A stretch of 64,000 nt of DNA from a virus, in IMG/VR virus record IMGVR_UViG_3300027749_000039, positions 64,001 to 128,000 of that record, one strand, 5' to 3'. The notes beneath the pieces are model-generated. The model ran no database searches and was not told where the DNA came from. It saw nothing but the letters and a program-made list of their open reading frames with translations. This document shows positions 2,241-63,803 of the stretch, one piece after another. Made by a program: the position numbers and the translations under genes. Numbering within the stretch: the first letter of the stretch is position 1; each line of letters starts with the position of its first letter.

Positions 2241-2516
2241 TTATTTAAATGTTATTTTTGTACTTCCAAATCCATATAATGGATTATATTCGTTAATGCA
2301 ACTGCCAACGTGTGGATGTTGTTTTGCTATTTTATGAATAGCAGCTTTTAATACACCCGAACCTATTCCGTGTATTACGGTTATTTCAATTTCTCCTAAT
2401 GCAAGCGCCTTATCTAGTTCATATTCAAACATATCTAATTGTATTTGAAGTGAAAAGCGTGGATCATATCCGGGAGAATTAGTAATCTCAGGAGATAAAT
2501 GCAAATCTACTACCAT
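2241..2516 (-). CDS. stand-alone Smr-domain endonuclease
   Basis: N-terminal VDLH and IHGIGSGVLK motifs typical of Smr/MutS2 C-terminal domains; 91 aa. Confidence 0.85.
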   Translation of the reverse strand: MVVDLHLSPEITNSPGYDPRFSLQIQLDMFEYELDKALALGEIEITVIHGIGSGVLKAAIHKIAKQHPHVGSCINEYNPLYGFGSTKITFK

Positions 2517-3196
2517 TTCTTTTTTACGCTGTAGCCAGCTTTATTAAGCTTAGTTCGCATTTCTTCTTTTTCTTCTGGTGTAAAATTAACTTTTACCGGA
2601 AATTCCTTACTATTAGAATCAAAGAAAGTTATTTCATAATCTTCAAATGAACACTCTATACCATAGTCATCTGGTTGATATGGATGCTCCGCACCAATAC
2701 CTTTGCCTTTTTGTACATAAAAATTGGCATCTTCATCGTCTTCTTTTGAATCGTCGGTATTCATAACTTCGTATTCATCTTCGTCCTCATCCTCATCTTC
2801 TTCGTAATCTTCGTTGTCCTCATCGTCTTTTGAATCATCGTCCTCATCTTCTTCGTCATAGTTATCATCGTCCTCATCTTCTTCGTCATAGTTATCATCG
2901 TCCTCATCTTCTTCGTCCTCATCTTCTTCGTCATCGTCCCAACTATCTCCGAAAAAATCTTTATAACCGGGAACATTTTTAAATGTATCCATACCACCCA
3001 TTCCACCAACATCAAATGCTCTACAACACATCTCTAAACATTTAATGAAGTCCTCAAATGACTCATTATTTTTATCAATATATACGATATCTTCGTCATC
3101 ACCGTCAGCATCACCAATCATATAGTTTATATGAACTTTATAGCAGTTCTTATATACTGGTTGTTCTATTTCTTTTTTACCAATTTTTATTTCCAT
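2510..3196 (-). CDS. hypothetical protein with long Asp/Glu low-complexity insert
   Basis: About 70 aa of almost pure D/E between apparently globular N- and C-terminal parts. Confidence 0.7.
   Translation of the reverse strand: MEIKIGKKEIEQPVYKNCYKVHINYMIGDADGDDEDIVYIDKNNESFEDFIKCLEMCCRAFDVGGMGGMDTFKNVPGYKDFFGDSWDDDEEDEDEEDEDDDNYDEEDEDDDNYDEEDEDDDSKDDEDNEDYEEDEDEDEDEYEVMNTDDSKEDDEDANFYVQKGKGIGAEHPYQPDDYGIECSFEDYEITFFDSNSKEFPVKVNFTPEEKEEMRTKLNKAGYSVKKKW
2835..2917. repeat. 30-bp coding tandem repeat (about 2.8 copies)
   Basis: Unit tcatcgtcctcatcttcttcgtcatagtta at 2835 and 2865, partial at 2895; encodes NYDEEDEDDD on the minus strand. Confidence 0.9.
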
Positions 3197-12979: not shown

Positions 12980-13010
12980 CAAAGATACAATAATTTTTGA
13001 TAAACACAAA
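12980..13010 (-). promoter_or_regulatory. Bacteroidota-type promoter (TTTG-N19-TATCTTTG)
   Basis: caaagata 12980-12987, caaa 13007-13010. Confidence 0.8.
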
Positions 13011-19138: not shown

Positions 19139-19184
19139 ATTTCTTAGTTTAAGCAAAGATAAGAAATTATTTTGAAATTACAAA
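19099..19184. repeat. 86-bp direct repeat copy 1 (promoter plus first 13 codons of 18401..19138)
   Basis: Identical to 21192..21277 except one base (19177 a vs 21270 t). Confidence 0.95.
19154..19184 (-). promoter_or_regulatory. Bacteroidota-type promoter (TTTG-N19-TATCTTTG)
   Basis: caaagata 19154-19161, caaa 19181-19184. Confidence 0.8.
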
Positions 19185-31567: not shown

Positions 31568-31587
31568 GTCGCTTTTTTTATTATTAA
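31541..31587. terminator. bidirectional terminator (21-bp arms)
   Basis: ttaataataaaaaaagcgact-gaata-agtcgctttttttattattaa between convergent genes. Confidence 0.85.
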
Positions 31588-34500
31588 AAAGTTCTAGTTA
31601 TAGTAGCTGCGGTGTTAGATGCTGGGTTAGTAAACATATTACCACTATTTGCTGGTGTATAAACACTGCTCGAACTACCAATAGTATCTACATCTATTGT
31701 TAATACTATATTACCAACATAGTTGTAATTAGCATTAGTGTAATCAATATAAGGAGCGATAGCTACATATGGATAATATATTGTTTGATCTATATTTGAT
31801 TCTGTTGCATACTGTAAGAACGGAATCATATCTACTTCATAAAAAGACATATTTGTTATAGATGCACTTAAACTACTATACATATATAAATCGAATGATT
31901 TCTTGTTATAAAAGTATTCAGTTTTAGTTAATACGCTAGTTAATGCGTGATTGAATGAACCAGGTGAAGCAGCCCAACCTACGCTCTCATTATAAGAAGT
32001 ATTGAGTATTCTTATATTAGTAGCTTGATGTGGTTCAGTAAATGTCATATCAACTTGGTAATATCTATCAGATTCAGTATTTAATTTAACATTTGTATTG
32101 CTTATAATTAATTCACCACCTTGTAAGTTTAATAGTTCTGAAGTTGGATCAGTCATGTTTGATTCTACATCAGTTGTGCCATATGTATTAGAATATGTCC
32201 AGCTATTATTTAATAAATTATCTAAACCTACATATGCATTAGTAGAAGATACTGGATTTTCAAAATTACCGCTATCTGGTATTAGATTATTGTATATTGT
32301 TGACTTATTACCCAACATATAATTAATATTATTATTACCTATTTTAAAATATGAATTAGAACTTAATATATCATAAGTAGGTGAACCATAAATATTTTGA
32401 TAATTATATGTATAAGGATATTCACCGCCACCACCACTTATAAATGTGCTAAATATAGTGCTTTTTTTATTTAAATTAACTTGTGATTGTGTTGAATAAT
32501 TAACATCAATCCAAGATAGATATAATGAAGAATTTGCTTGACCTACATTATTATCTTTAAATGAGAAATTTTGAACTAATCCAGTATTATATGTAGCAAT
32601 GCCACCAGTTATAGAATAAGTTCCAATAGAAGACATAAAATGCCCACCATCAAATATACCATCTATTAAATGCGAATTAGACATTTCAGCTATATATGGA
32701 TAACCTTTAAATAATCCATAATTCCATATACCACTAAAATAACCACATAAAAATCCACCTGAAAGCCAAACATTTTTGCTTAAGTAAATAAGGTGATTTT
32801 GTGAATCTTTTGTTATTTCAAGTATTGGTGAAGTTAACGTATATTCCAATACTATTGATGAATTATCAACATAAACAACTTTGAACTTATCTTTTAATAA
32901 TTTTCTTATACCATTTACATCTATTCCAATTACATTACCAACACTCACATAATCACCTATATTAAATATAGTTGTTATAGTTGTGTCTATAAATTTTAAT
33001 TGTAATCTATGTGTATATTTGCTAATTTTTATATAAGAAGCTACAGGATATAAATCACAATAAGTTAATGTATCATCATTTCTATAACCATTTTCCCATA
33101 TACCATTTTCCCATACTCCACTATAGAACATACCATTCCCATATTGTAATCCAACACCAATATCACTTGTTAAAGTTAATGCTGGTAAAGATAAAGTTGC
33201 GGTAATAGAAGGTGAAGCACTTGCGCCATATACATTATATAATTTATTATTATATAATGGATTATATGATATAAGAGATTCATTTACGGTAACTGATAAT
33301 ATAGAAACTTGCTCTGCTAATGAATTACCAGAAGAGCTTTTAAGTATCTGTAATTTTGTATTTGTAAATCCGCTAGTCCAGTAATATATATCGTCTTTAG
33401 TATAGCTTTTTGTTATAGTAGATGTTCCTACCGCACAATTTGTATATGAAACAGTATAGCCCATTTGAACTCCTATTTGAACATTATTTGGCATACTTGT
33501 TATAGATAATGTTAGTGGATAGTCAATATGCACTATAACTTTTACAGTATAATTTGCATAATCAGTAAATACATTATTTGAGAACACACCGCCACTTTGA
33601 ATCATTCCAGTCAAAGGATATGATGTATAATTATTTGGTTGATTTAACTTATAATTATTTGCTGGAATTGTAGTCACATTGACATGTGCAAAGGTGTATA
33701 ATCCACCTGAATATGAATGTGCAGGATAATATGTTGTGACAGTATATGTAGATGAATATGTCCATGTGCCTAATACAGCCCAACCTCTATTATCACCACC
33801 TGCAGCATATGTAAATGTAGGATCATATAATACTTCTGGTGAACTTCCTGTGAAGGCATTCATCAAATGTATAGAATTATTATTAGAAGCTGAAGCTATA
33901 TTATATAATACAGATTGTGCCATCGGATCAATAATCTGTAACTGTGTAGAATCTATAGTTGAAGTTCCAAAGTTTGAACCATACCAGTTACCATTTCTCC
34001 ATAAACCAGATTCCCAATATATATTTTCAGCAGTTCCATAATTCCATGTTCCTTTTCTCCAGATTCCACCTAACATATAACCACTGTTAAACTTACCATC
34101 TTTCCACTCCGATATATAGAATGCGCTATTATTAAATACACCATTAATCCAAACACAACTATTATTGAAATTAAATGATAGTGTATTAGAGTTAGTGCCT
34201 CCTGATAAACTTTGATCAATAAAAGGATTAAATGAGCTACTATTAAATTCTCCACTAATGAAAGAACCATTTAACCAAGCACTATTGTAGATAATACCTG
34301 AGCTATGTGAGAAAGTTCCACCTAACCAAAGCATATTTTGGAAAACAACGTTATTTGTGATTTTTTTAGTATCTGTTGCTCTTAATAGCTCTGTGTAAAC
34401 TCTTTGATTGGGATTACCAATATGTGCTTGTGTAACAACATAGCCATCTAACCATATACCATAATAGTTATTAGTAAATGAGTTTACAAAATTGATTTCA

Positions 34501-37500
34501 TTTTTAAAACTCGCTGTTGTTGAACTACCATTAAATTTACCATTTGTAAATACACCTGAATACCAAAATTTACCATTAAATATACCACCATTAAACTCAC
34601 CATCATACCAAGTTGAGTTGGTAACAAATACTGGTTCGCCAAATTGACCTCCGTTAAATTTACCATATTCCCATGAACAATTCTCTACTCTTATATCTGT
34701 ATCTAATGATACTATACTTATAGTAAATCCAGTGCCAGTACTTGTTGTATTTGGTATAGTATTATAATTTCCTATTGCATAATTATTACCTTTTTCGTCT
34801 ATTGTGTAACTTACAATATGTCCGATTGAGTTATTATATAGACTAGTTGAATGTGTAGTTGTTGAAGGTGTATAACCAGTTCCATAAGATGATAGTGTAA
34901 ATGAAGTCACATTACCAATGTAACCCACTGATAGCACTTGACCAGATGCAGGTGTTGTGCCATTACTTATTGTAAATGAATCACCTACTATATAGCCTAA
35001 GCCTGGTGAAACAATAGATGCGTCTATTATTGGACCAGAATTACCACTATAAAGAATAGAGCTATATGTACCCGAAGCTGAAAATCCAAATCCATTGCTT
35101 AATATAGTAAATCCGGTAACAGTTCCGCCAGTACTAACTGATATTCTACCTCTTGTTTGTGAGGTGTTAGAAAAGTTATCAATATAGGCTAATTCGCTAG
35201 AGGTGTAACCAGTTCCGCCAGAATATATATTATATGTTAATATACTAAAAGTAGGTGCGGCACTTACTGTTAATACTCTTAATATAAATCCAGAGCCAGC
35301 AGTATTACCAACTGCATTTATTTGTAAAGTTAGTCCACTAGCATTGCTTACACTATTAATTGTTCCTGTGGCTGTGTTATCACCACCTATTATGCTAAAT
35401 GTATCACCTATATTAAATCCATATCCAGGATTTAATATACTTGTTGAATAATGTGATACATTACTTGAAGTGTAACCATAGTATGATAAAAATTTGCCAT
35501 TATTGAATATACCATTTTTCCATTTAGCAAATCCGTCAAATCTACCTCCATTAAAAGTGCCATTATACCAAGTAGATTGTGCATCATCGCCAAAACTTGT
35601 AAATTCTCCATCGTTAAATACTCCATTATACCAATGTATAGTTGAAGCACCGCCTATTATAGCACTTTCGACAGTTCCGTTATACCAATATGTTTGTGTG
35701 GCACCTACACTTAAATTCGGGTAATAACCCATAGTGGTTATTAAATATGGTGAATTTTTTAATCCCAGTATACCATTATTCCATATACCACCATACCATT
35801 TTGAATTATATAGTCTACCATTATTAAATACACCATCTATCCATACTGAATTATAGAATTGTCCGCTATTAAATATACCATCTCTCCAAGAGCGATAATA
35901 ACCTACGCTATAATCATCATATGATGTTAATGTAATTGACGTATCATCCGAATTTACAAAATAACCATTATTAAAAGTGCTATTCAACCAATATCCGTTA
36001 TTAAATACTCCATTTGAAAAAGTTTGTCCAGAAAATATATTATTAAATGAAATAGCATTATTCCAAGTTGTGTTCAAGATGTGTGATTTATATATAACAC
36101 CACTGTTTATAGCATTGAAATCATCTTTAAATAAAGTATTTATAAATCTTAATTTATCTATATTACTTACAGTTAAGTTTTGATCAGTATTATCAAACGT
36201 AGAATTGTATATTGTTGAATTATTTATTAAAATTGTTTTAAATAAACCAGATTCTATCGTTGAATTTTCTATTTTAAATCTATTTACACTAATATAATTT
36301 GGTAAAAATCCATTTATAGAAAATACACCACCAGGTGTCAGTCCTAATATATTATTAGTTACTTCTGTTAAATACAATTGTCTCCAAGTAGATACAGGTG
36401 TTATATATTCTACTTTAAATGTTCCAGAAAATTTTGTAACATTTGAATAAATATCAGTATAGTCAATACCGTTTAACCATATATAGTCATCTACATCAAA
36501 TGTATCATATTGATTATATACATCAGTAGTTAATCTAATTATTAAAGAATTTGTTGAACCAAATGGCATTGATATGCCTAAATTGTCACCATCTAATTGT
36601 ATTTTAGACGAGATGCTATTAAAACTAGAACCACTTTCCCAAGTAGAGTTTAATAATAATCCACTTTCGAAATCAGCTATGGATAACATAGTATCAGTAA
36701 ATAAATTATTTACTGAATATGGTGTGATAATGCTATTATTAGATGTAATTGTAGAGCCTGATTGATACCATGCTAATGTACTTCCTAAATCAATATCAAT
36801 TGATGGTAGTTCGGTTGTATTTGCTGTATGTGTAGTCGAATAAATAGAACCATCAAAATTTATAGAAGTTTTGTATAAGTTTTCATTTTTATTCTTTCTA
36901 GATACAATTATTGGATCTGTTGATAGTTCTGGATTATTAAAATAGTCTAGTATATACTCATTCTCTATATTTAGATAAACTTTATTTTCATCGTTAAATG
37001 ATGTTAAATATAAATCCTTTTTAATTTTATCAATATGTATAACTTCAAAATTTTGCATCCTTAATAAATCTATTTCGGATATAAATAATTTTAAAATTCC
37101 TCTTAATGAGACTCCATCAATAGTATAACTCCATAAATCTGCCTTTAATATATTTACACCATTTTCGGAATTATATGTACCACTTGCTACACTATTCTTA
37201 ATTTGATTAGAGGATAATCTACTTGTCTGTACTTTGGAATTAATAATATTAGAATCTAATATGCTAGAATTAGATAGCAATGCTGTGTTAAAATCGCAAA
37301 ATTTATAATAACCGCTTTTAGAAGCTATTGAATAAGAATATGATAGTCCATAATATACGTCTAAACTACTTATTCCATAATTAGTTAAACCTATATTACA
37401 ATTATTGAAATTACCATTTATTATACTTGCTTGTTCTATATTAGAATCTATGATATAGTTGAACCCAAACCCTTTGTTATTTGAATAATCAGTTGTTTGT

Positions 37501-38603
37501 ATTGGTACTCCATTTGAATTTATGTAACAATAATAATTTTGTAAAAATTCTGTATCACTAAGATTTGTAGGAGAATTAAAGTTTATGCCTCTAGAAGGTG
37601 TTCCTGAATTTATAGTTGAGTTAACGACAGATACCGGTGTGTTTTCATAAAATTGTGCATTTAATAACGCAGTATTAGCATTACCACTATTGGTATTGTT
37701 ATTATTTGTTTTTGAATTTAATACTCCATTTTTCCAATTAGAATTTATAAAAATACCAGAATTCCATTTAGCTGAATTACCATACCAATTTATTTGGTCT
37801 ATATATGTTCCAAATATACCATCATTCCACGTTCCCTTAAATAATCCATTTCTAAAATTTAATTTAGAAATGTATGGTTTATTTGATGGTATATCAAAGT
37901 TCCATTTATTTAGGGTTTCACTATATGCATATACACCTCTTGATTTTAAAGTTGTATTGTTAAATATAATATCTTCACCTATTATTAGTAATTTTCCATT
38001 ATTTGTAAGTGAATATGTTGGTGATCCAGTAGTTGCAAATGGTATAGAAGAAGTGCCTAAAAAATTTCCTAATTCAAACCATAATGATACACCACTTGAA
38101 TTTGATAATCTTTGATAAAACCCAGAATTTGCAATACCACCATATTCTCCAAATATAGAATTTGTTGACCCAGAAAATGTTGAATCTACAAATGCTATAT
38201 TATTTGATAGTTTATATTCAAATTTATTATAAGTATTGTTACTTACATTATCGTAGGAATTAATGGTGGTATTATTAATATAATCAAATTCTCTTTGAGA
38301 AGATATATGATATACCTTAATATACTCATCTATATTATTTATTGATGAAGGTAAGTTGCCTGTGTAATCTATATCTAATGTTACACGGCATCTATCTATA
38401 TCTAAGATTGTATAACCATCTATTCCAGCTGAATAATTACTGGAAGAAATAAAATTATCAGAATCGTAATTACCATTAATTATAAACACCTTATCACCAA
38501 CTACAAAATTAGTGGCGAATTCAGAATAAAATACAGTTTTCTTATAACCGTTATAATTAACTGAATCAACATAATTAAGTAAGCCAGAAGCAAATTTTCC
38601 CAT
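31584..38603 (-). CDS. 2339-aa putative virion/tail protein with WxxGxF repeats and Gly-rich repeats
   Basis: Asn/Ser/Thr/Gly-rich; blocks of WxxGxFxxG; I.xxGxGYxxGD.F.I repeats; TATATA-N4-ATG. Confidence 0.65.
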   Translation of the reverse strand: MGKFASGLLNYVDSVNYNGYKKTVFYSEFATNFVVGDKVFIINGNYDSDNFISSSNYSAGIDGYTILDIDRCRVTLDIDYTGNLPSSINNIDEYIKVYHISSQREFDYINNTTINSYDNVSNNTYNKFEYKLSNNIAFVDSTFSGSTNSIFGEYGGIANSGFYQRLSNSSGVSLWFELGNFLGTSSIPFATTGSPTYSLTNNGKLLIIGEDIIFNNTTLKSRGVYAYSETLNKWNFDIPSNKPYISKLNFRNGLFKGTWNDGIFGTYIDQINWYGNSAKWNSGIFINSNWKNGVLNSKTNNNNTNSGNANTALLNAQFYENTPVSVVNSTINSGTPSRGINFNSPTNLSDTEFLQNYYCYINSNGVPIQTTDYSNNKGFGFNYIIDSNIEQASIINGNFNNCNIGLTNYGISSLDVYYGLSYSYSIASKSGYYKFCDFNTALLSNSSILDSNIINSKVQTSRLSSNQIKNSVASGTYNSENGVNILKADLWSYTIDGVSLRGILKLFISEIDLLRMQNFEVIHIDKIKKDLYLTSFNDENKVYLNIENEYILDYFNNPELSTDPIIVSRKNKNENLYKTSINFDGSIYSTTHTANTTELPSIDIDLGSTLAWYQSGSTITSNNSIITPYSVNNLFTDTMLSIADFESGLLLNSTWESGSSFNSISSKIQLDGDNLGISMPFGSTNSLIIRLTTDVYNQYDTFDVDDYIWLNGIDYTDIYSNVTKFSGTFKVEYITPVSTWRQLYLTEVTNNILGLTPGGVFSINGFLPNYISVNRFKIENSTIESGLFKTILINNSTIYNSTFDNTDQNLTVSNIDKLRFINTLFKDDFNAINSGVIYKSHILNTTWNNAISFNNIFSGQTFSNGVFNNGYWLNSTFNNGYFVNSDDTSITLTSYDDYSVGYYRSWRDGIFNSGQFYNSVWIDGVFNNGRLYNSKWYGGIWNNGILGLKNSPYLITTMGYYPNLSVGATQTYWYNGTVESAIIGGASTIHWYNGVFNDGEFTSFGDDAQSTWYNGTFNGGRFDGFAKWKNGIFNNGKFLSYYGYTSSNVSHYSTSILNPGYGFNIGDTFSIIGGDNTATGTINSVSNASGLTLQINAVGNTAGSGFILRVLTVSAAPTFSILTYNIYSGGTGYTSSELAYIDNFSNTSQTRGRISVSTGGTVTGFTILSNGFGFSASGTYSSILYSGNSGPIIDASIVSPGLGYIVGDSFTISNGTTPASGQVLSVGYIGNVTSFTLSSYGTGYTPSTTTHSTSLYNNSIGHIVSYTIDEKGNNYAIGNYNTIPNTTSTGTGFTISIVSLDTDIRVENCSWEYGKFNGGQFGEPVFVTNSTWYDGEFNGGIFNGKFWYSGVFTNGKFNGSSTTASFKNEINFVNSFTNNYYGIWLDGYVVTQAHIGNPNQRVYTELLRATDTKKITNNVVFQNMLWLGGTFSHSSGIIYNSAWLNGSFISGEFNSSSFNPFIDQSLSGGTNSNTLSFNFNNSCVWINGVFNNSAFYISEWKDGKFNSGYMLGGIWRKGTWNYGTAENIYWESGLWRNGNWYGSNFGTSTIDSTQLQIIDPMAQSVLYNIASASNNNSIHLMNAFTGSSPEVLYDPTFTYAAGGDNRGWAVLGTWTYSSTYTVTTYYPAHSYSGGLYTFAHVNVTTIPANNYKLNQPNNYTSYPLTGMIQSGGVFSNNVFTDYANYTVKVIVHIDYPLTLSITSMPNNVQIGVQMGYTVSYTNCAVGTSTITKSYTKDDIYYWTSGFTNTKLQILKSSSGNSLAEQVSILSVTVNESLISYNPLYNNKLYNVYGASASPSITATLSLPALTLTSDIGVGLQYGNGMFYSGVWENGIWENGYRNDDTLTYCDLYPVASYIKISKYTHRLQLKFIDTTITTIFNIGDYVSVGNVIGIDVNGIRKLLKDKFKVVYVDNSSIVLEYTLTSPILEITKDSQNHLIYLSKNVWLSGGFLCGYFSGIWNYGLFKGYPYIAEMSNSHLIDGIFDGGHFMSSIGTYSITGGIATYNTGLVQNFSFKDNNVGQANSSLYLSWIDVNYSTQSQVNLNKKSTIFSTFISGGGGEYPYTYNYQNIYGSPTYDILSSNSYFKIGNNNINYMLGNKSTIYNNLIPDSGNFENPVSSTNAYVGLDNLLNNSWTYSNTYGTTDVESNMTDPTSELLNLQGGELIISNTNVKLNTESDRYYQVDMTFTEPHQATNIRILNTSYNESVGWAASPGSFNHALTSVLTKTEYFYNKKSFDLYMYSSLSASITNMSFYEVDMIPFLQYATESNIDQTIYYPYVAIAPYIDYTNANYNYVGNIVLTIDVDTIGSSSSVYTPANSGNMFTNPASNTAATITRTF

Positions 38604-53986: not shown

Positions 53987-54651
53987 TGAAAATAGTAACA
54001 TTTAGTGATACACACAATTGTCACGATCAGGTGGTTTTGCCTGATTGTGACAATTGTATTTTTGGTGGCGACTTATCTGGTAGAGGTAACCGAATAGAAA
54101 CATCTTTCTTTTTTAGATGGTATAATGCACAAACGCAATGTAAACATAAAATTATGATTGTCGGAAATCACGATATATGTTTTCAAGAAAAATTTAATGA
54201 AGAAACACAAGCAAACCGTTGGCTCGAAACATTAATAGCGCAATATCCTGATATAATTGTATTAGATAATAGATACCCAGATGGAGTTAGAATTGAAGGC
54301 ATAAACATATATGGCAGCCCAGCTACACCATGGTATCATGGTGAAAGATGGGCATTTAACTACCATAGACAAGATATAGCAGAAATCTGGAGTAAAATTC
54401 CAACAAATACTGATATTCTTATAACGCATGGACCAGCTTATGGTATTTTAGACAAAACTTTAACAGAAAAAAATGCAGGTTGTCCAGAATTGCTACAAAG
54501 AATAAAAGAAATAAAGCCTAAATATCATATATGTGGGCATATACACGAATCATATGGTGCTCATTATGAGGATGAAACTATGCACATTAATTGCTCAATA
54601 ATTGATAAAGATTATTATCCAACAAATAAGCCAATAGATTTTATCTATTAA
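53986..54651 (+). CDS. metallophosphoesterase (MPPED-like)
   Basis: SDTH, GDLS, GNHD, LITHGP, CGHIHE. Confidence 0.9.
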   Translation: MKIVTFSDTHNCHDQVVLPDCDNCIFGGDLSGRGNRIETSFFFRWYNAQTQCKHKIMIVGNHDICFQEKFNEETQANRWLETLIAQYPDIIVLDNRYPDGVRIEGINIYGSPATPWYHGERWAFNYHRQDIAEIWSKIPTNTDILITHGPAYGILDKTLTEKNAGCPELLQRIKEIKPKYHICGHIHESYGAHYEDETMHINCSIIDKDYYPTNKPIDFIY

Positions 54652-59755: not shown

Positions 59756-59786
59756 TTTGTTTTTCGATTTTTATTTCTTATCTTTG
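59756..59786 (+). promoter_or_regulatory. Bacteroidota-type promoter (TTTG-N19-TATCTTTG)
   Basis: tttg 59756-59759, tatctttg 59779-59786. Confidence 0.8.
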
Positions 59787-59801: not shown

Positions 59802-60878
59802 ATGAACTTTTTAGACGAATTTCTCAAATTAACTGCATATACTACGCCATTTAAGCAAGAATCTGATTTAGAAGACTATCTTAATAGCAAAATCCCTGGT
59901 CTTATGAAAGACGCAATCGGTAATTATCATAAAATTATTGGTGATAGTGAAACACTTTTTACTTGCCATCTAGATAATTATTGCCGAGATAAAAGAGCTG
60001 TCACGCATGTTATAGAAGATAATATAATTTGCACTGATGGACTAACTATACTAGGAGCTGATAATAAAGCAGGTGTATTAGTTCTTATATACCTTATAAG
60101 CAATAATGTCCCTGGGCATTATTGCTTCTTTATTGGTGAAGAACCAATTGAATCTGGTGGACTTTATGGTTCTACTTTATTTGCTAAATATTATAAAGAT
60201 ATTAAAAAATTTAAAAGAGCTATTGCTTTTGATAGAAAAGCTACTGGTTCAATTATTACTAGGCAAATGGCTCAAACATGTTGTTCTAATGATTTTGCCC
60301 TTGCTCTTTGTAAAGAATTTAATGATTATGGATTATGGATGGAACCAGACGAAACTGGGTATTATACAGATACAGCTGCATTTTTAGAGCTAATACCAGA
60401 ATGCACTAATATATCTGTTGGCGTATATGACGAACATTCTACAGAAGAATCCATAGATATAGAATATCTAGAAACAATAGCCAAGACAGCCGTCCTAATA
60501 GATTGGGAATATCTACCTACACATAGAACACCAAATTCTTGGATGCCCCTCGAAAATGAGGGTGATGCTATTGTTGCACCTCATATCGAAACGGTGAATC
60601 AAACTTTATATAAAGCAGTTAAATCTATTTTATCTAATTTTAATTTCCGGTGCATGAATAAACTAGACTTTAAAAGTGGTAAAACAATGATGTTTAATAA
60701 TTGGTTTTATGATCTACCATTAACCGTAATTATTAGAAATGCTATTATTACTATAAATGGTAATAGAATACCTATACATGTTGGGCGGAATCAGTTTATT
60801 GATCCACAAGATATACAACATATAATAGAAGGTACAGTAGAAGTAGAGAATATTAACAATTTTGATTGGGATTTTTAA
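59802..60878 (+). CDS. M20/M28-family zinc peptidase-like protein
   Basis: TCHLD, LGADNKAG, FIGEE, AIAFDR, YTDT, NISVG. Confidence 0.75.
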   Translation: MNFLDEFLKLTAYTTPFKQESDLEDYLNSKIPGLMKDAIGNYHKIIGDSETLFTCHLDNYCRDKRAVTHVIEDNIICTDGLTILGADNKAGVLVLIYLISNNVPGHYCFFIGEEPIESGGLYGSTLFAKYYKDIKKFKRAIAFDRKATGSIITRQMAQTCCSNDFALALCKEFNDYGLWMEPDETGYYTDTAAFLELIPECTNISVGVYDEHSTEESIDIEYLETIAKTAVLIDWEYLPTHRTPNSWMPLENEGDAIVAPHIETVNQTLYKAVKSILSNFNFRCMNKLDFKSGKTMMFNNWFYDLPLTVIIRNAIITINGNRIPIHVGRNQFIDPQDIQHIIEGTVEVENINNFDWDF

Positions 60879-60880
60879 AA

Positions 60881-61318
60881 ATGAGTATAAATAACAAAAA
60901 AGCATATTACGAGTATTCTATATTAGAAGAATATGTAGCTGGGCTTAAATTATTAGGTTCAGAAGTTAAAGCATTGCGTGAAGGTAATGGCAATATTAAC
61001 GATACATATGTTCTTATAATGGACGATGAAGTATATGTAAGAGGCATGTATATTGCTAAACATAAAGAGTCATCTTGGATGAATCATGAAGAAGTTCGTG
61101 ATAGGAAACTGCTTTTAACTAAAAAGCAAATCAACGATTTAAAAAAAGATTTGAAAGTTAATGGTATTACCATTGTTCCTATTAGCCTATTTACTATGGG
61201 TGGTAAGTTTAAACTTAAAATAGGTGTAGCAAAGGGCAAAAAGAATTATGATAAGAAACAATCTATCAAAGAAAAGGATATTAAACGTCAAACTGATAGA
61301 GATTTAAATAATTACTAA
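60881..61318 (+). CDS. smpB: SsrA-binding protein SmpB
   Basis: NKKAYYEY, AGLKLLGSEVKALR, RKLLL, IVP, GKKNYDKK..IK tail; start at MSINN. Confidence 0.96.
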   Translation: MSINNKKAYYEYSILEEYVAGLKLLGSEVKALREGNGNINDTYVLIMDDEVYVRGMYIAKHKESSWMNHEEVRDRKLLLTKKQINDLKKDLKVNGITIVPISLFTMGGKFKLKIGVAKGKKNYDKKQSIKEKDIKRQTDRDLNNY

Positions 61319-61555
61319 ATGAAACATACAGAAAAACTAATCCCATTTGGATGGGATGACTGGGAAGAACATGATATATTACTTAATTCTTATTATAATG
61401 TTGAATTTACAGAAGATTTTGGTGAATTTAAAAAAGGTGAGAAATTTTCCTCAATTACTGTAGATTACATTAAAGGTATAATCGAAGCATTTATTGGTTC
61501 TCCTAGTGATGATTTAAAAATAAAAACAGTTGCCTTTAAAGCAACACCTATTTAA
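61319..61555 (+). CDS. hypothetical protein
   Basis: ORF directly after smpB. Confidence 0.55.
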   Translation: MKHTEKLIPFGWDDWEEHDILLNSYYNVEFTEDFGEFKKGEKFSSITVDYIKGIIEAFIGSPSDDLKIKTVAFKATPI

Positions 61556-61556
61556 A

Positions 61557-61647
61557 AAACGAATGTTAAACCACTTGATCATGGGATAGTAGGATTGGTA
61601 TCAATCCAAGATTAATGGCTTCTCAACCCATTTCTATCTATTCGTTT
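61557..61647 (+). ncRNA. candidate structured RNA element 1 (three-way junction)
   Basis: gatag/ctatc closing stem, UA, ggattg/caatcc hairpin, AAGAU, aatgg/ccatt hairpin; outer aaacgaat/attcgttt. Homologous to element 2. Confidence 0.5.
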
Positions 61648-61649
61648 AT

Positions 61650-61729
61650 AAAGCAAATATGACAGTAGGCTAAGCCAAAGTGCCGAGATAATTGGTAAGG
61701 CACACCAATTCTGTCTATTTGCTTTTTTT
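61650..61729 (+). ncRNA. candidate structured RNA element 2 (three-way junction, possible pseudoknot, ends in a U-tract)
   Basis: aaagcaaata/tatttgcttt plus gacag/ctgtc, UA, ggc/gcc, GAGAU, aattggt/accaatt; loop ggcac complements gtgcc. Confidence 0.55.
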
Positions 61730-61731
61730 AT

Positions 61732-61762
61732 TTTGTAAAGTCAAATATTTTTCGTATCTTTG
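61732..61762 (+). promoter_or_regulatory. Bacteroidota-type promoter (TTTG-N19-TATCTTTG) for leuS
   Basis: tttg 61732-61735, tatctttg 61755-61762. Confidence 0.8.
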
Positions 61763-61776
61763 TAAAAATTACAAAA

Positions 61777-63045
61777 ATGAACAAATATATTACAGTCATG
61801 TTTCCTTATCCGTCTGGTGACGGGTTGCACATAGGACATGTATATAATTACGCAATAATGGACTCATATTGTCGCTATATGCGATATATGGGCAACGAAG
61901 TATATCAGCCTTTTGGGTTTGATGCCTTTGGTTTGCCTGCAGAAAATTATGCTAAAAAAGTAGGTAGAGATCCAAAAGATGTCACTTATGAAAACATAGA
62001 AAAGTTCCGTATTCAAATGAAACAAATGAATACTAAATTTGAAGAAGTATTGATTACTTCGGATCCTTCCTACCAGAAATGGACACAATGGTTGTTCATG
62101 AAATTGAAAGAACATGGGCTGGCTTATAAGAAAGACGGTGAAGTAAATTACTGTCCTTCTTGTGAAACTGTATTGGCTCGTGAACAAGTAAAAGAAGGTA
62201 AATGCGAAAGGTGTAGTTCTGTTATTGAGATGAAAACTATGAATCAGTGGTATTTTAAGATTACTGATTATAAAGAACGCTTGATTAAAAACTTGGATAA
62301 AATAGATTATCCTACTTCTACTATTAATGCACAACGCATGTGGTTGGAAAACTTGCATGATTGGTGTGTTAGTCGTCAAAGAAGTTGGGGTTGTCCTATA
62401 CCTATTGAAGGCGAAACAGACACAATGGATACATTTGTCGATTCATCTTTTTATTTTATCCGTTATTGTGACCCATTTAATGAAAATGAAATGTGTGCCA
62501 AAGACAAATATAAACAAGTTGATGTTTATGTTGGTGGTAACGAACATGCTTGTATGCACTTGATTTATGCAAGGTTTATTAACATGTTCTTGTATGATAT
62601 TGGTGTAGTTTCAGAAGAAGAACCTTTTCGGAAGTGCATCCATCAGGGAATGATTCTAAACGAAGGCGAGAAGATGTCCAAATCAAAGGGCAATACTATT
62701 AATCCAGATTCTTATGACCAGGACACCTTAAGATTCTATCTTATGTTTATCGGACATTACTTTGATGGTGGTTCATGGTCTGATCAGAATATAGCTGGTA
62801 TTAATCGCTTTATTAATCGTTTTAAAGAGTGGATGTCAAGAGAGGGTGATGATGTTATAGATGTGCCATCTTTTAAAACTAAAATATCTAATTATACAGA
62901 ATCTTTTAAGTTTAATAAGGTTGTATCTGAATTTATGACATTGGTTAATAAAGAACGGATAAAAAACTTGACCGCAGATTCTAAAGAAGAGTTGATTTCC
63001 ATCTTGGAGATTTACATGCCTGGCATAAGAAATAAATTAATTTAA
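61777..63045 (+). CDS. leuS: minimal leucyl-tRNA synthetase lacking the CP1 editing and C-terminal domains
   Basis: MFPYPSG..LHIGH, GFDAFGLPAEN, Zn finger CPSC/CERC, DW.VSRQR.WG.PIP, DTMDTF.DSS, YVGG.EHA..HL.YARF, KMSKSKGN; 422 aa. Confidence 0.9.
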   Translation: MNKYITVMFPYPSGDGLHIGHVYNYAIMDSYCRYMRYMGNEVYQPFGFDAFGLPAENYAKKVGRDPKDVTYENIEKFRIQMKQMNTKFEEVLITSDPSYQKWTQWLFMKLKEHGLAYKKDGEVNYCPSCETVLAREQVKEGKCERCSSVIEMKTMNQWYFKITDYKERLIKNLDKIDYPTSTINAQRMWLENLHDWCVSRQRSWGCPIPIEGETDTMDTFVDSSFYFIRYCDPFNENEMCAKDKYKQVDVYVGGNEHACMHLIYARFINMFLYDIGVVSEEEPFRKCIHQGMILNEGEKMSKSKGNTINPDSYDQDTLRFYLMFIGHYFDGGSWSDQNIAGINRFINRFKEWMSREGDDVIDVPSFKTKISNYTESFKFNKVVSEFMTLVNKERIKNLTADSKEELISILEIYMPGIRNKLI

Positions 63046-63046
63046 T

Positions 63047-63355
63047 ATGAAACACAAAGCACATAGAGCGAACCCGCAATATTATTTTGGCGAAGAAACA
63101 CCTTGTCATAAATTAGCAAATGATCTTATGGCTAATTTAGAATATAGCGGAGTGCTATCTGATGCTTTTTTAAGCTATATTTACACTAGTTTATTTAATA
63201 TGATATACTATCACGATCATAATGATTTAGCTAATGGTAAGCAGTTATATAGCGATATAAACGATTTTTTAGATAGGTATTCTCTATTCTCTGATAGTTA
63301 TAAATCAACTGTTAGACGTCCATTTTTATTAATATTAAATTCAATTGAAAATTGA
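63047..63355 (+). CDS. hypothetical protein
   Basis: ORF. Confidence 0.5.
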   Translation: MKHKAHRANPQYYFGEETPCHKLANDLMANLEYSGVLSDAFLSYIYTSLFNMIYYHDHNDLANGKQLYSDINDFLDRYSLFSDSYKSTVRRPFLLILNSIEN

Positions 63356-63558
63356 GATTAGATAGAATGCGATGGTTTGGTCCAGCAAGACCCGAAGATA
63401 AACCAGGTGTAGAAGGTTGGCGACATAGCAGATTATTCAAAGTAGTTAGGCATCAGGGTGCTAAAGCTCTTCGTGCTATAAGCAAAAAATTATGTAAGGA
63501 ATCTATATCAGATAATGATATAGATTTTCCTACGTCTAAATATACAAGAAATCACTAA
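63352..63558 (+). CDS. hypothetical basic protein
   Basis: ORF; start uncertain. Confidence 0.45.
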   Translation: MRLDRMRWFGPARPEDKPGVEGWRHSRLFKVVRHQGAKALRAISKKLCKESISDNDIDFPTSKYTRNH

Positions 63559-63803
63559 TGGATATAAAATTAATAGGCATTTGGAATGACTCAGCAAGTG
63601 ATAAACCATTTTTTTGCGGATTACCACTAATTGGTCAAATATATGAAGGACATTTAGATCCTGATACAAACAATTCTTGGCTTGTAGTGACTACCAGTAA
63701 TAAAATTGGATATCGAATATTTCCAAAAGAATTTCTCATGCCACTTGCTGAATGGCGAGATAAACAAATAGATTCAATTTTACAAGATGACGAAGAAAAA
63801 TAA
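63558..63803 (+). CDS. small protein with C-terminal LAEWRDKQIDSILQD tail
   Basis: Shared tail motif. Confidence 0.6.
   Translation: MDIKLIGIWNDSASDKPFFCGLPLIGQIYEGHLDPDTNNSWLVVTTSNKIGYRIFPKEFLMPLAEWRDKQIDSILQDDEEK

Follow-up and report, generated by a model that had tools for sequence, protein, structure and literature searches.

The window analysed here is a 64,000-nucleotide stretch of AT-rich viral DNA (G+C 23-33%), bases 64001-128000 of a 190,602-bp IMG/VR virus record (IMGVR_UViG_3300027749_000039), and our subject is a gene near its end, at 61777..63045 on the + strand. The gene is an uninterrupted open reading frame (ORF) of 422 amino acids plus stop, and its product, hereafter the mini-LeuRS, is a bacterial-type leucyl-tRNA synthetase (LeuRS) cut to half the normal size. 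CheckV rates the record as 31% complete, which implies a genome of ~600 kb; among public genomes, LR745206.1 ('uncultured phage', 634,780 bp) comes closest. The gene occurs in published huge-phage genomes, and some sources label it simply as leucyl-tRNA synthetase; our literature searches found no description of the phage mini-LeuRS architecture.

A trimmed bacterial-type LeuRS

An earlier reading of this DNA from its letters alone (the sequence-only reading) had noted a continuous ORF with HIGH and KMSKS motifs, and these are indeed present in the uninterrupted frame, as LHIGH at residues 17-21 and KMSKS at 299-303. The best-scoring profile is NCBIfam TIGR00396 (leuS_bact; E 6e-122, 408.4 bits); the next family, ValRS, reaches 155 bits, a score that none of the Val, Met or Ile synthetase profiles exceeds, and the top PDB matches are all LeuRS. 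The leucine pocket of Thermus thermophilus LeuRS, reportedly formed by M40, F41, Y43, D80, F501, Y507, H541 and H545 (1H3N structure paper), is matched by identical residues (M8, F9, Y11, D49, F220, Y226, H257 and H261). Across 139 family sequences, HIGH, KMSKS, D49, E256/H257/H261, F220 and Y226 are invariant or nearly so. Within the HIGH motif (H18-I-G-H21; 61828..61839, +) H18, G20 and H21 do not vary, and the same is true of K299, M300 and K302 of KMSKS, with the nearby G297 present in 133 of the 139. The ZN1 zinc knuckle (C126, C129...C143, C146; 62152..62214, +), which aligns with the ZN1 module of full-length LeuRS, is kept, all four cysteines occurring in 133/139 members.

Relative to full-length enzymes, the mini-LeuRS lacks ~30 N-terminal residues, the CP1 editing domain, the ZN2 insert, the leucine-specific domain and the linker plus C-terminal domain; the N-terminal loss had not been named in the sequence-only reading. 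Domain losses were seen in three independent ways, namely with the leuS_bact profile, by phmmer against 1H3N and in a MAFFT alignment with full-length and CP1-less relatives. The profile is covered only at 17-221, 411-428, 484-569 and 604-755 of its 843 positions. By phmmer, residues 3-190 pair with T. thermophilus 35-224, 192-210 with 418-436, 206-294 with 487-578 and 299-360 with 637-702, the T. thermophilus alignment jumping from 224 to 418 (CP1), from 436 to 487 (ZN2 insert) and from 578 to 637 (leucine-specific domain). In the MAFFT alignment the junctions read QRMWLEN|LHDWCVSRQ, WGCPIPI|EGETDTMDTF and QGMIL-NEGE-KMSKS. The three methods bear out the CP1 loss at a QRMW junction that had been described from the sequence alone. 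At this junction, N192|L193 (62350..62355, +), where full-length LeuRS carries an editing domain of ~190 aa, QRMWLEN is fused straight to LHDWCVSRQ with zero linker; the residues on either side, W-L-E-N-L-H-D-W-C-V-S-R, show 82-100% conservation among family members, and PF13603, the CP1 editing domain, has no match in the protein. The ZN2-insert junction lies at I210|E211 (62404..62409, +), where full-length LeuRS has ~50 aa, and by alignment the tetrapeptide N-E-G-E stands for the leucine-specific domain just ahead of KMSKS (62659..62685, + for both). That the second zinc region and the leucine-specific domain are both absent had been read correctly, but the latter loss is not special to the mini-LeuRS: its nearest full-length relatives (P0126 and P0142) likewise lack the domain, so that this loss predates the phage form.

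An AlphaFold2 model of the mini-LeuRS, built on a 55-sequence alignment, has a predicted local distance difference test score (pLDDT) of 92.4 and a predicted template modelling score (pTM) of 0.90, and its top Foldseek match is the CP1-less LeuRS of Mycoplasma mobile (TMq 0.91). Structural alignment by VIA over LeuRS cores gives Z ~38 and root-mean-square deviations (rmsd) of 1.8-2.0 Å, with Z 38.7 and rmsd 1.9 Å over 419 residues for T. thermophilus LeuRS and Z 37.8 and rmsd 1.8 Å over all 422 residues for the M. mobile enzyme; identity to T. thermophilus and Escherichia coli LeuRS is 40-42% over structurally aligned residues. Model residues 1-422 correspond to T. thermophilus 33-792, E. coli 33-773 and M. 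mobile 36-554. Residues 311-422 (62707..63042, +) are predicted to form a helical bundle of the anticodon-binding type (model helices 315-421), and the protein ends at the last bundle helix. The sequence-only reading had placed this end inside the bundle, which the structural alignment does not support, since the bundle is essentially whole. The model stops at T. thermophilus residue 792 of 878 and E. coli residue 773 of 860, without the C-terminal elbow-binding domain; judged from the model, what is missing C-terminally is only the linker plus the ~85-aa tRNA-elbow domain.

A conserved phage family under purifying selection

On the sequences searched, the mini-LeuRS is a conserved family found only in phages. 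In a word-indexed search, more than 120 clusters came up with 71-92% identity, almost all of them 410-440 aa long and on contigs of up to 780 kb; IMG/VR contributes 31 loci, and clustering at 50% reduces the family to one representative plus fragments. No orthologue was among the best matches from 185,579 species genomes, where the best one-piece match is a CP1-less LeuRS-like ORF on a contig of Calothrix anomala FACHB-343 (L051 507-2273; 37% identity over residues 4-415). The deletion junctions recur almost letter for letter in more than 130 homologues, which is far beyond chance, and all orthologues stop at the same helix. An origin from a Bacteroidota LeuRS was considered and dropped: the most similar N-terminal halves from cellular genomes (50-55% identity) belong to a mixture of phyla, and no donor can be named.

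The sequence-only reading had inferred a streamlined protein under selection and had proposed to check this by collecting homologues and examining their junctions and the ratio of non-synonymous to synonymous substitution rates (dN/dS). The 139 aligned sequences agree with it: at least 90% conservation is found at 202 of the 422 positions, both deletion junctions are almost invariant, and the C terminus is conserved. For pairs with unsaturated dS, the Nei-Gojobori method gives dN/dS values of 0.03-0.10 (median 0.068 over 24 pairs with dS 0.2-1), these pairs being phylogenetically related and hence not independent. By region, the ratio is 0.076 over residues 1-190, 0.041 over 191-310 and 0.072 over the bundle (311-422). 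In known LeuRSs the helical bundle serves tRNA binding and not amino-acid activation; a bundle as constrained as the catalytic parts thus points to a tRNA-dependent role.

We looked for the missing domains with PF13603, TIGR00396 and a full-length relative in the 190-kb record, in LR745206.1 (635 kb) and in LR756501.1 (735 kb). PF13603 had no match in the 190-kb record or LR756501.1 and one weak match in LR745206.1, inside IleRS; the last 95 residues (740-835) of the full-length relative matched nothing in the three records, even at E <= 10; and the TIGR00396 and full-length-relative searches gave nothing beyond other class Ia synthetases. Separate subunits carrying CP1 or the C-terminal domain, which the sequence-only reading had named as one observation that would count against it, were therefore not found in the 190-kb fragment and two complete relatives. 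An ORF at 63047-63355, which begins 2 nt past the mini-LeuRS stop and belongs to no Pfam family, was rejected as the missing C terminus, having no similarity to its LR745206.1 counterpart, itself devoid of LeuRS similarity; the genes downstream of the mini-LeuRS differ between orthologous loci. A profile overhang across the TAA stop in LR745206.1 proved to be noise.

Reduced relatives of the mini-LeuRS

CP1-less LeuRS had been taken to be rare, a view that does not hold in metagenomes: CP1-less forms of 500-706 aa are among the top 150 representative matches, so that such enzymes occur more widely in uncultured sequence than M. mobile, the single example, would lead one to expect. In the mini-LeuRS and in these metagenomic and huge-phage CP1-less or CP1-reduced forms, as well as in the C. 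anomala ORF, CP1 is deleted at the same place. A 530-aa relative (P0122; L131 2488-4080), 58% identical to the mini-LeuRS, shares its ZN2 and C-terminal losses; its CP1 is shrunken but retains the editing-site motifs TTxPxT and GTG...D. It occurs on small phage-like contigs, adjoining a GIY-YIG endonuclease. The 735-kb phage LR756501.1 encodes a 520-aa LeuRS (L006 3950-5512) that lacks CP1 and the C-terminal domain and keeps ZN2, and forms of 569-706 aa (P0125-P0131, P0159, P0244) lack CP1 and keep the C-terminal domain. Taken together, these sequences suggest an order of domain losses, in which, from the P0122 architecture, CP1 appears to have been lost last. We know of no characterised LeuRS of the P0122 type, the 520-aa type, the 569-706-aa type or the C. 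anomala type.

Leucine codon restriction and cognate avoidance

In the mini-LeuRS gene, TTG makes up 16 of the 21 Leu codons, against 10% genome-wide, where TTA accounts for 67% (135 ORFs of the record). No other of these 135 ORFs is so extreme, the next highest TTG fraction being 0.29, and in the codon table of the gene leucine deviates far more than any other amino acid (G = 58, p = 3e-11). The leucine content is also low (5.0% vs a median of 8.1%). TTG encodes, among others, the nearly invariant L17, L53, L133, L262 and L272, which argues that TTG means leucine. Orthologues use TTG for 18/18, 19/19, 19/19, 20/20 and 24-26 of 26-27 leucines; one orthologue lineage has CTG at 19 of 20 Leu codons, and some lineages are mixed. 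The P0122 gene uses CTT/CTA for 24 of its 26 leucines, its neighbouring genes being 80% TTA, and the 520-aa LeuRS of LR756501.1 contains zero leucines. Where distant orthologues share a Leu position, the codon is the same in 76-100% of cases, compared to 20-55% for Arg, Ser and four-fold families, indicating that selection maintains the codon choice. With nearly all of its leucines in one rare codon, the gene was probably shaped for expression under scarcity of charged Leu-tRNA. A 227-aa ORF with only 2 Leu (2510-3196, -) was set aside, its product being acidic, of low complexity and unconnected with LeuRS.

Avoidance of the cognate amino acid extends to other synthetases. A blind, annotation-free scan of all ORFs in the 190-kb record for amino-acid depletion, with NCBIfam names attached afterwards, picked out, outside the window, AsnRS (L048 909-2099; 2 Asn vs 33 expected), TyrRS (L049 589-1683; 0 Tyr vs 21 expected) and GlnRS (L050 883-2472; 1 Gln vs 14 expected). 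LR745206.1 encodes a ValRS of 443 aa (L047 3379-4710, -) without CP1 and with 0 Val, a MetRS of 457 aa (L047 1196-2569, -) with a GTG start and zero ATG codons, and an IleRS (L014 1423-3492, +) with 0 Ile in 690 residues. To our knowledge, no natural CP1-less ValRS has been described, and our literature searches found no paper on cognate avoidance in phage synthetases.

tRNA genes of the record

Among the 46 tRNA genes of the 190-kb record is an amber suppressor (anticodon CTA, 54412-54485; outside the window), and ARAGORN found no tRNA within the 64-kb window. Five tRNAs with Leu anticodons lie at 157982-162315, also outside the window: UAA, CAA, UAG and AAG, the last in two copies. Only the UAA tRNA has a long variable arm; the two AAG tRNAs and the UAG and CAA tRNAs are 73-77 nt long and have short arms. 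The T loops of the CAA tRNA and one AAG tRNA start with A (atcgtag, atcgttg), the D loop of the UAG tRNA is without GG, and all five have A73. As a separate observation, ARAGORN reports a 90-nt tRNA with a four-base anticodon (ctga) at 133744-133833, between tRNA-Arg and tRNA-Ser and outside the window.

Genomic setting of the gene

A predicted promoter-like site of the Bacteroidota type (TTTG, 20 nt, TATCTTTG; 61732..61762, +) lies 14 nt before the mini-LeuRS ATG. The window has 13 occurrences of the Bacteroidota promoter consensus, TTTG-N18-21-TAnnTTTG, whereas shuffles yield 3.5 +/- 1.7 (0/100 shuffles reach 13). Several copies stand directly upstream of ORF starts, and further examples of pattern matches are at 12980-13010 (-), 19154-19184 (-) and 59756-59786 (+); the enrichment near ORF starts fits a Bacteroidota host. 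Large ORFs match phage families, among them NAD-dependent DNA ligase, an SbcC-like protein and an HNH endonuclease. Al-Shayeb et al. 2020 assign genomes >634 kb to the Mahaphage clade, with Bacteroidetes as predicted hosts, and list synthetases of huge phages without domain analysis (PMC7162821). The source is probably a huge Mahaphage-type phage whose host belongs to the Bacteroidota, and the record a fragment of its ~600-kb genome.

Between the smpB operon and the promoter-like site are two adjacent structured RNA elements (61557-61729; minimum free energy -48.3 kcal/mol, z = -3.0), with a U run after the second. Because they lie upstream of the promoter-like site, they are not obviously in the mini-LeuRS transcript and may belong to the upstream one. 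Rfam gave no match at gathering thresholds over the whole window and, at E <= 5 over 61300-63700, only snoRNA/miRNA noise, with no T-box or other known leader before the mini-LeuRS. The full-length SmpB gene (60866-61318; Pfam 1.6e-49) is two ORFs upstream of the mini-LeuRS; despite its presence, ARAGORN detected no transfer-messenger RNA in the 190-kb record. Elsewhere in the window, a 2339-aa ORF (31584-38603, -) without a PHROG match is strongly depleted in Lys and Glu (79 K vs 206 expected).

Proposed function and rival explanations

On balance, the sequences favour a working, editing-free LeuRS that still charges tRNA-Leu. Such an enzyme would consist only of the Rossmann catalytic fold, the ZN1 module and the helical tRNA-binding bundle; it would activate leucine and transfer it to host tRNA-Leu or to at least one of the five phage Leu-anticodon tRNAs, and charging would proceed without proofreading, the absence of CP1 pointing to mischarging. 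The Leu-tRNA supply restored in this way would allow translation of the TTA-rich phage genome to continue. With few leucines, nearly all of them TTG, the gene itself could be translated while the main Leu-tRNA pool, that of the TTA decoders, is depleted; TTG would be read by a separate isoacceptor, tRNA(CAA), which is phage-encoded and would face little other demand in the phage. Possible causes of scarcity would be host synthetase shut-off, tRNA-targeting defences, phage tRNAs left uncharged by the host or amino-acid exhaustion. The Leu-codon restriction, the cognate avoidance and the constraint on the tRNA bundle indirectly favour a translation-linked role over a non-ribosomal one. More tentatively, and as a possibility that we regard as rather doubtful, these parts could belong to a private charging system able to bootstrap itself, in which synthetases are purged of their cognate residue (for Leu, restricted to one rare codon), the mini-LeuRS is paired with phage tRNA-Leu and mischarging is tolerated. 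The synthetases could then be made after collapse or shut-off of host charging, and the mini-LeuRS would pair with phage tRNA-Leu, including the short-arm tRNAs with unusual elbows, without an elbow contact.

Several points weigh against a charging enzyme. The score of 408.4 bits is below the curated NCBIfam whole-protein cut-off for leuS_bact (548.4), which we attribute to the missing domains, and the dN/dS estimates come from the related pairs mentioned above. Deletion of the C-terminal domain, which in bacterial LeuRS holds the G19:C56 elbow pair, abolishes aminoacylation in the T. thermophilus and E. coli enzymes (PMC3561953), and the mini-LeuRS shows no electrostatic compensation, its core having an isoelectric point of ~5.9-6.3, whereas full-length relatives reach 8.4 over the same alignment columns. 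In archaea, LeuRS paralogues whose CP1 or C-terminal domains are damaged activate leucine and do not charge tRNA (PMC9437257), so that intact motifs in the mini-LeuRS do not prove charging. The Leu-anticodon tRNAs with short arms and unusual elbows may be a lead on the objection from the missing elbow domain; in Streptomyces, elbow stability matters less for charging of type I tRNA-Leu(CAA) than of type II (PMC6614811).

The same objection would also be answered if the mini-LeuRS charged tRNA only together with a separate phage elbow-binding cofactor, acting in trans like Arc1p or Trbp111 and replacing the C-terminal domain. We consider this dependence unlikely, although the inactivation of bacterial LeuRS by deletion of that domain (PMC3561953), a core no more basic than that of full-length enzymes and the trimming of several synthetases in these phages all speak for it. 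LR745206.1, whose mini-LeuRS is 83% identical, encodes a stand-alone 176-aa protein (L133 1282-1812) with a tRNA_bind oligonucleotide-binding (OB) fold of the Trbp111 type (52.7 bits, over the Pfam cut-off), ~10 kb from the truncated MetRS and ValRS genes. This protein may act in trans, but it may instead be the detached C-terminal domain of the truncated MetRS; moreover, neither the 190-kb fragment (~31% of the genome) nor LR756501.1 has a tRNA_bind gene, and no LeuRS-type C-terminal domain was found in the three records. Another reading makes the mini-LeuRS a leucine-activating paralogue outside ribosomal translation, a regulator or leucine donor comparable to LeuRS-I or haloarchaeal LeuRS2. 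Its losses of CP1, ZN2 and the C-terminal domain do resemble those of damaged LeuRS-I, which forms Leu-AMP and binds tRNA without aminoacylation (PMC9437257), and its profile score falls below the LeuRS cut-off. What makes this reading improbable is that selection constrains the tRNA-binding bundle no less than the active site, that avoidance of the own amino acid or main codon is expected of enzymes restoring a failing charging step, and that the phage carries matching tRNAs plus many other translation genes (PMC7162821).

We consider it very improbable that the mini-LeuRS is one subunit of a split enzyme with CP1 and/or the C-terminal part encoded elsewhere. The alpha-beta LeuRS of Aquifex aeolicus shows that this type exists in nature (PMC3643597), and a short ORF does begin 2 nt past the stop codon, but downstream ORFs vary between loci and are not like the C-terminal domain, PF13603 is matched in the searched genomes solely inside the IleRS of LR745206.1, and residues 740-835 of the full-length relative have no counterpart in the three records. 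A decaying remnant or assembly artefact, which the half-normal length and sub-cut-off score might suggest, has next to no probability: dN/dS is ~0.07, almost half of the positions (202/422) are highly conserved, the junctions and the stop position recur unchanged in dozens of independently assembled sequences drawn from several sources, and the predicted fold is confident and compact. The conservation data refute this last explanation.

Comparison with known systems

If the mini-LeuRS charges tRNA, as we favour, there would be a second, hitherto unknown way for a LeuRS to hold tRNA-Leu, and a natural minimal scaffold would stand between full enzymes and engineered urzymes. Codon restriction and cognate avoidance would predict that huge phages expect cognate charged tRNA to run out during infection and carry enzymes for a restart. 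An editing-free LeuRS, together with the editing-free ValRS of the relative, would mean that these phages accept statistical mistranslation, and CP1-less phage synthetases would be insensitive to inhibitors of the CP1 editing site. At 422 aa, the mini-LeuRS would be, as far as we know, the smallest LeuRS in nature. Elf et al. 2003 reportedly describe how isoacceptors are charged selectively under starvation, and M. mobile LeuRS is reported to mistranslate (Li et al. 2011, PNAS).

The nearest published idea to the codon and residue avoidance seen here is the cognate bias of amino-acid biosynthetic enzymes (PMC4209129). As in that case and in starvation systems, proteins that restore a supply are depleted in the amino acid concerned or use the codons of tRNAs that stay charged. 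Unlike the bias of biosynthetic enzymes, the effect described here concerns phage aminoacyl-tRNA synthetases and is extreme, reaching zero residues or a single codon.

With the canonical enzymes of T. thermophilus (1H3N/1OBC) and E. coli (4AQ7), the mini-LeuRS has in common the catalytic core, ZN1, the bundle, the HIGH and KMSKS motifs and the leucine pocket, whereas those enzymes keep what it has lost, namely CP1 editing, the ZN2 insert, the leucine-specific domain and the C-terminal elbow domain. Archaeal LeuRS-I (Sulfolobaceae) and haloarchaeal LeuRS2 are extra copies with impaired editing or C-terminal domains (PMC9437257); they are full-length, archaeal-type or chimeric, and cellular, whereas the mini-LeuRS is bacterial-type, cleanly trimmed and half the size.

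The M. mobile LeuRS (PDB 3ZIU), which is catalytically active, is likewise a natural bacterial-type LeuRS without CP1, and in both enzymes a Gly-containing tetrapeptide takes the place of the leucine-specific domain, GKDG in M. mobile LeuRS and NEGE in the mini-LeuRS (PMC3643597). However, the M. mobile enzyme has 637 aa and bridges the CP1 site with a nonapeptide linker, KEEIDGKIT (PMC3643597), where the mini-LeuRS has no linker. Its core is longer by ~100 residues (M. mobile 36-554 vs 422), and ~80 residues past the bundle make up a C-terminal domain, whereas the mini-LeuRS stops at the equivalent of M. mobile residue 554. The mini-LeuRS further differs in having no ZN2 insert, in being viral and in the Leu-codon restriction of its gene. 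It thus goes beyond the M. mobile enzyme in having also lost the CP1 linker, the ZN2 insert and the C-terminal domain, and the cognate-codon restriction is a noteworthy addition.

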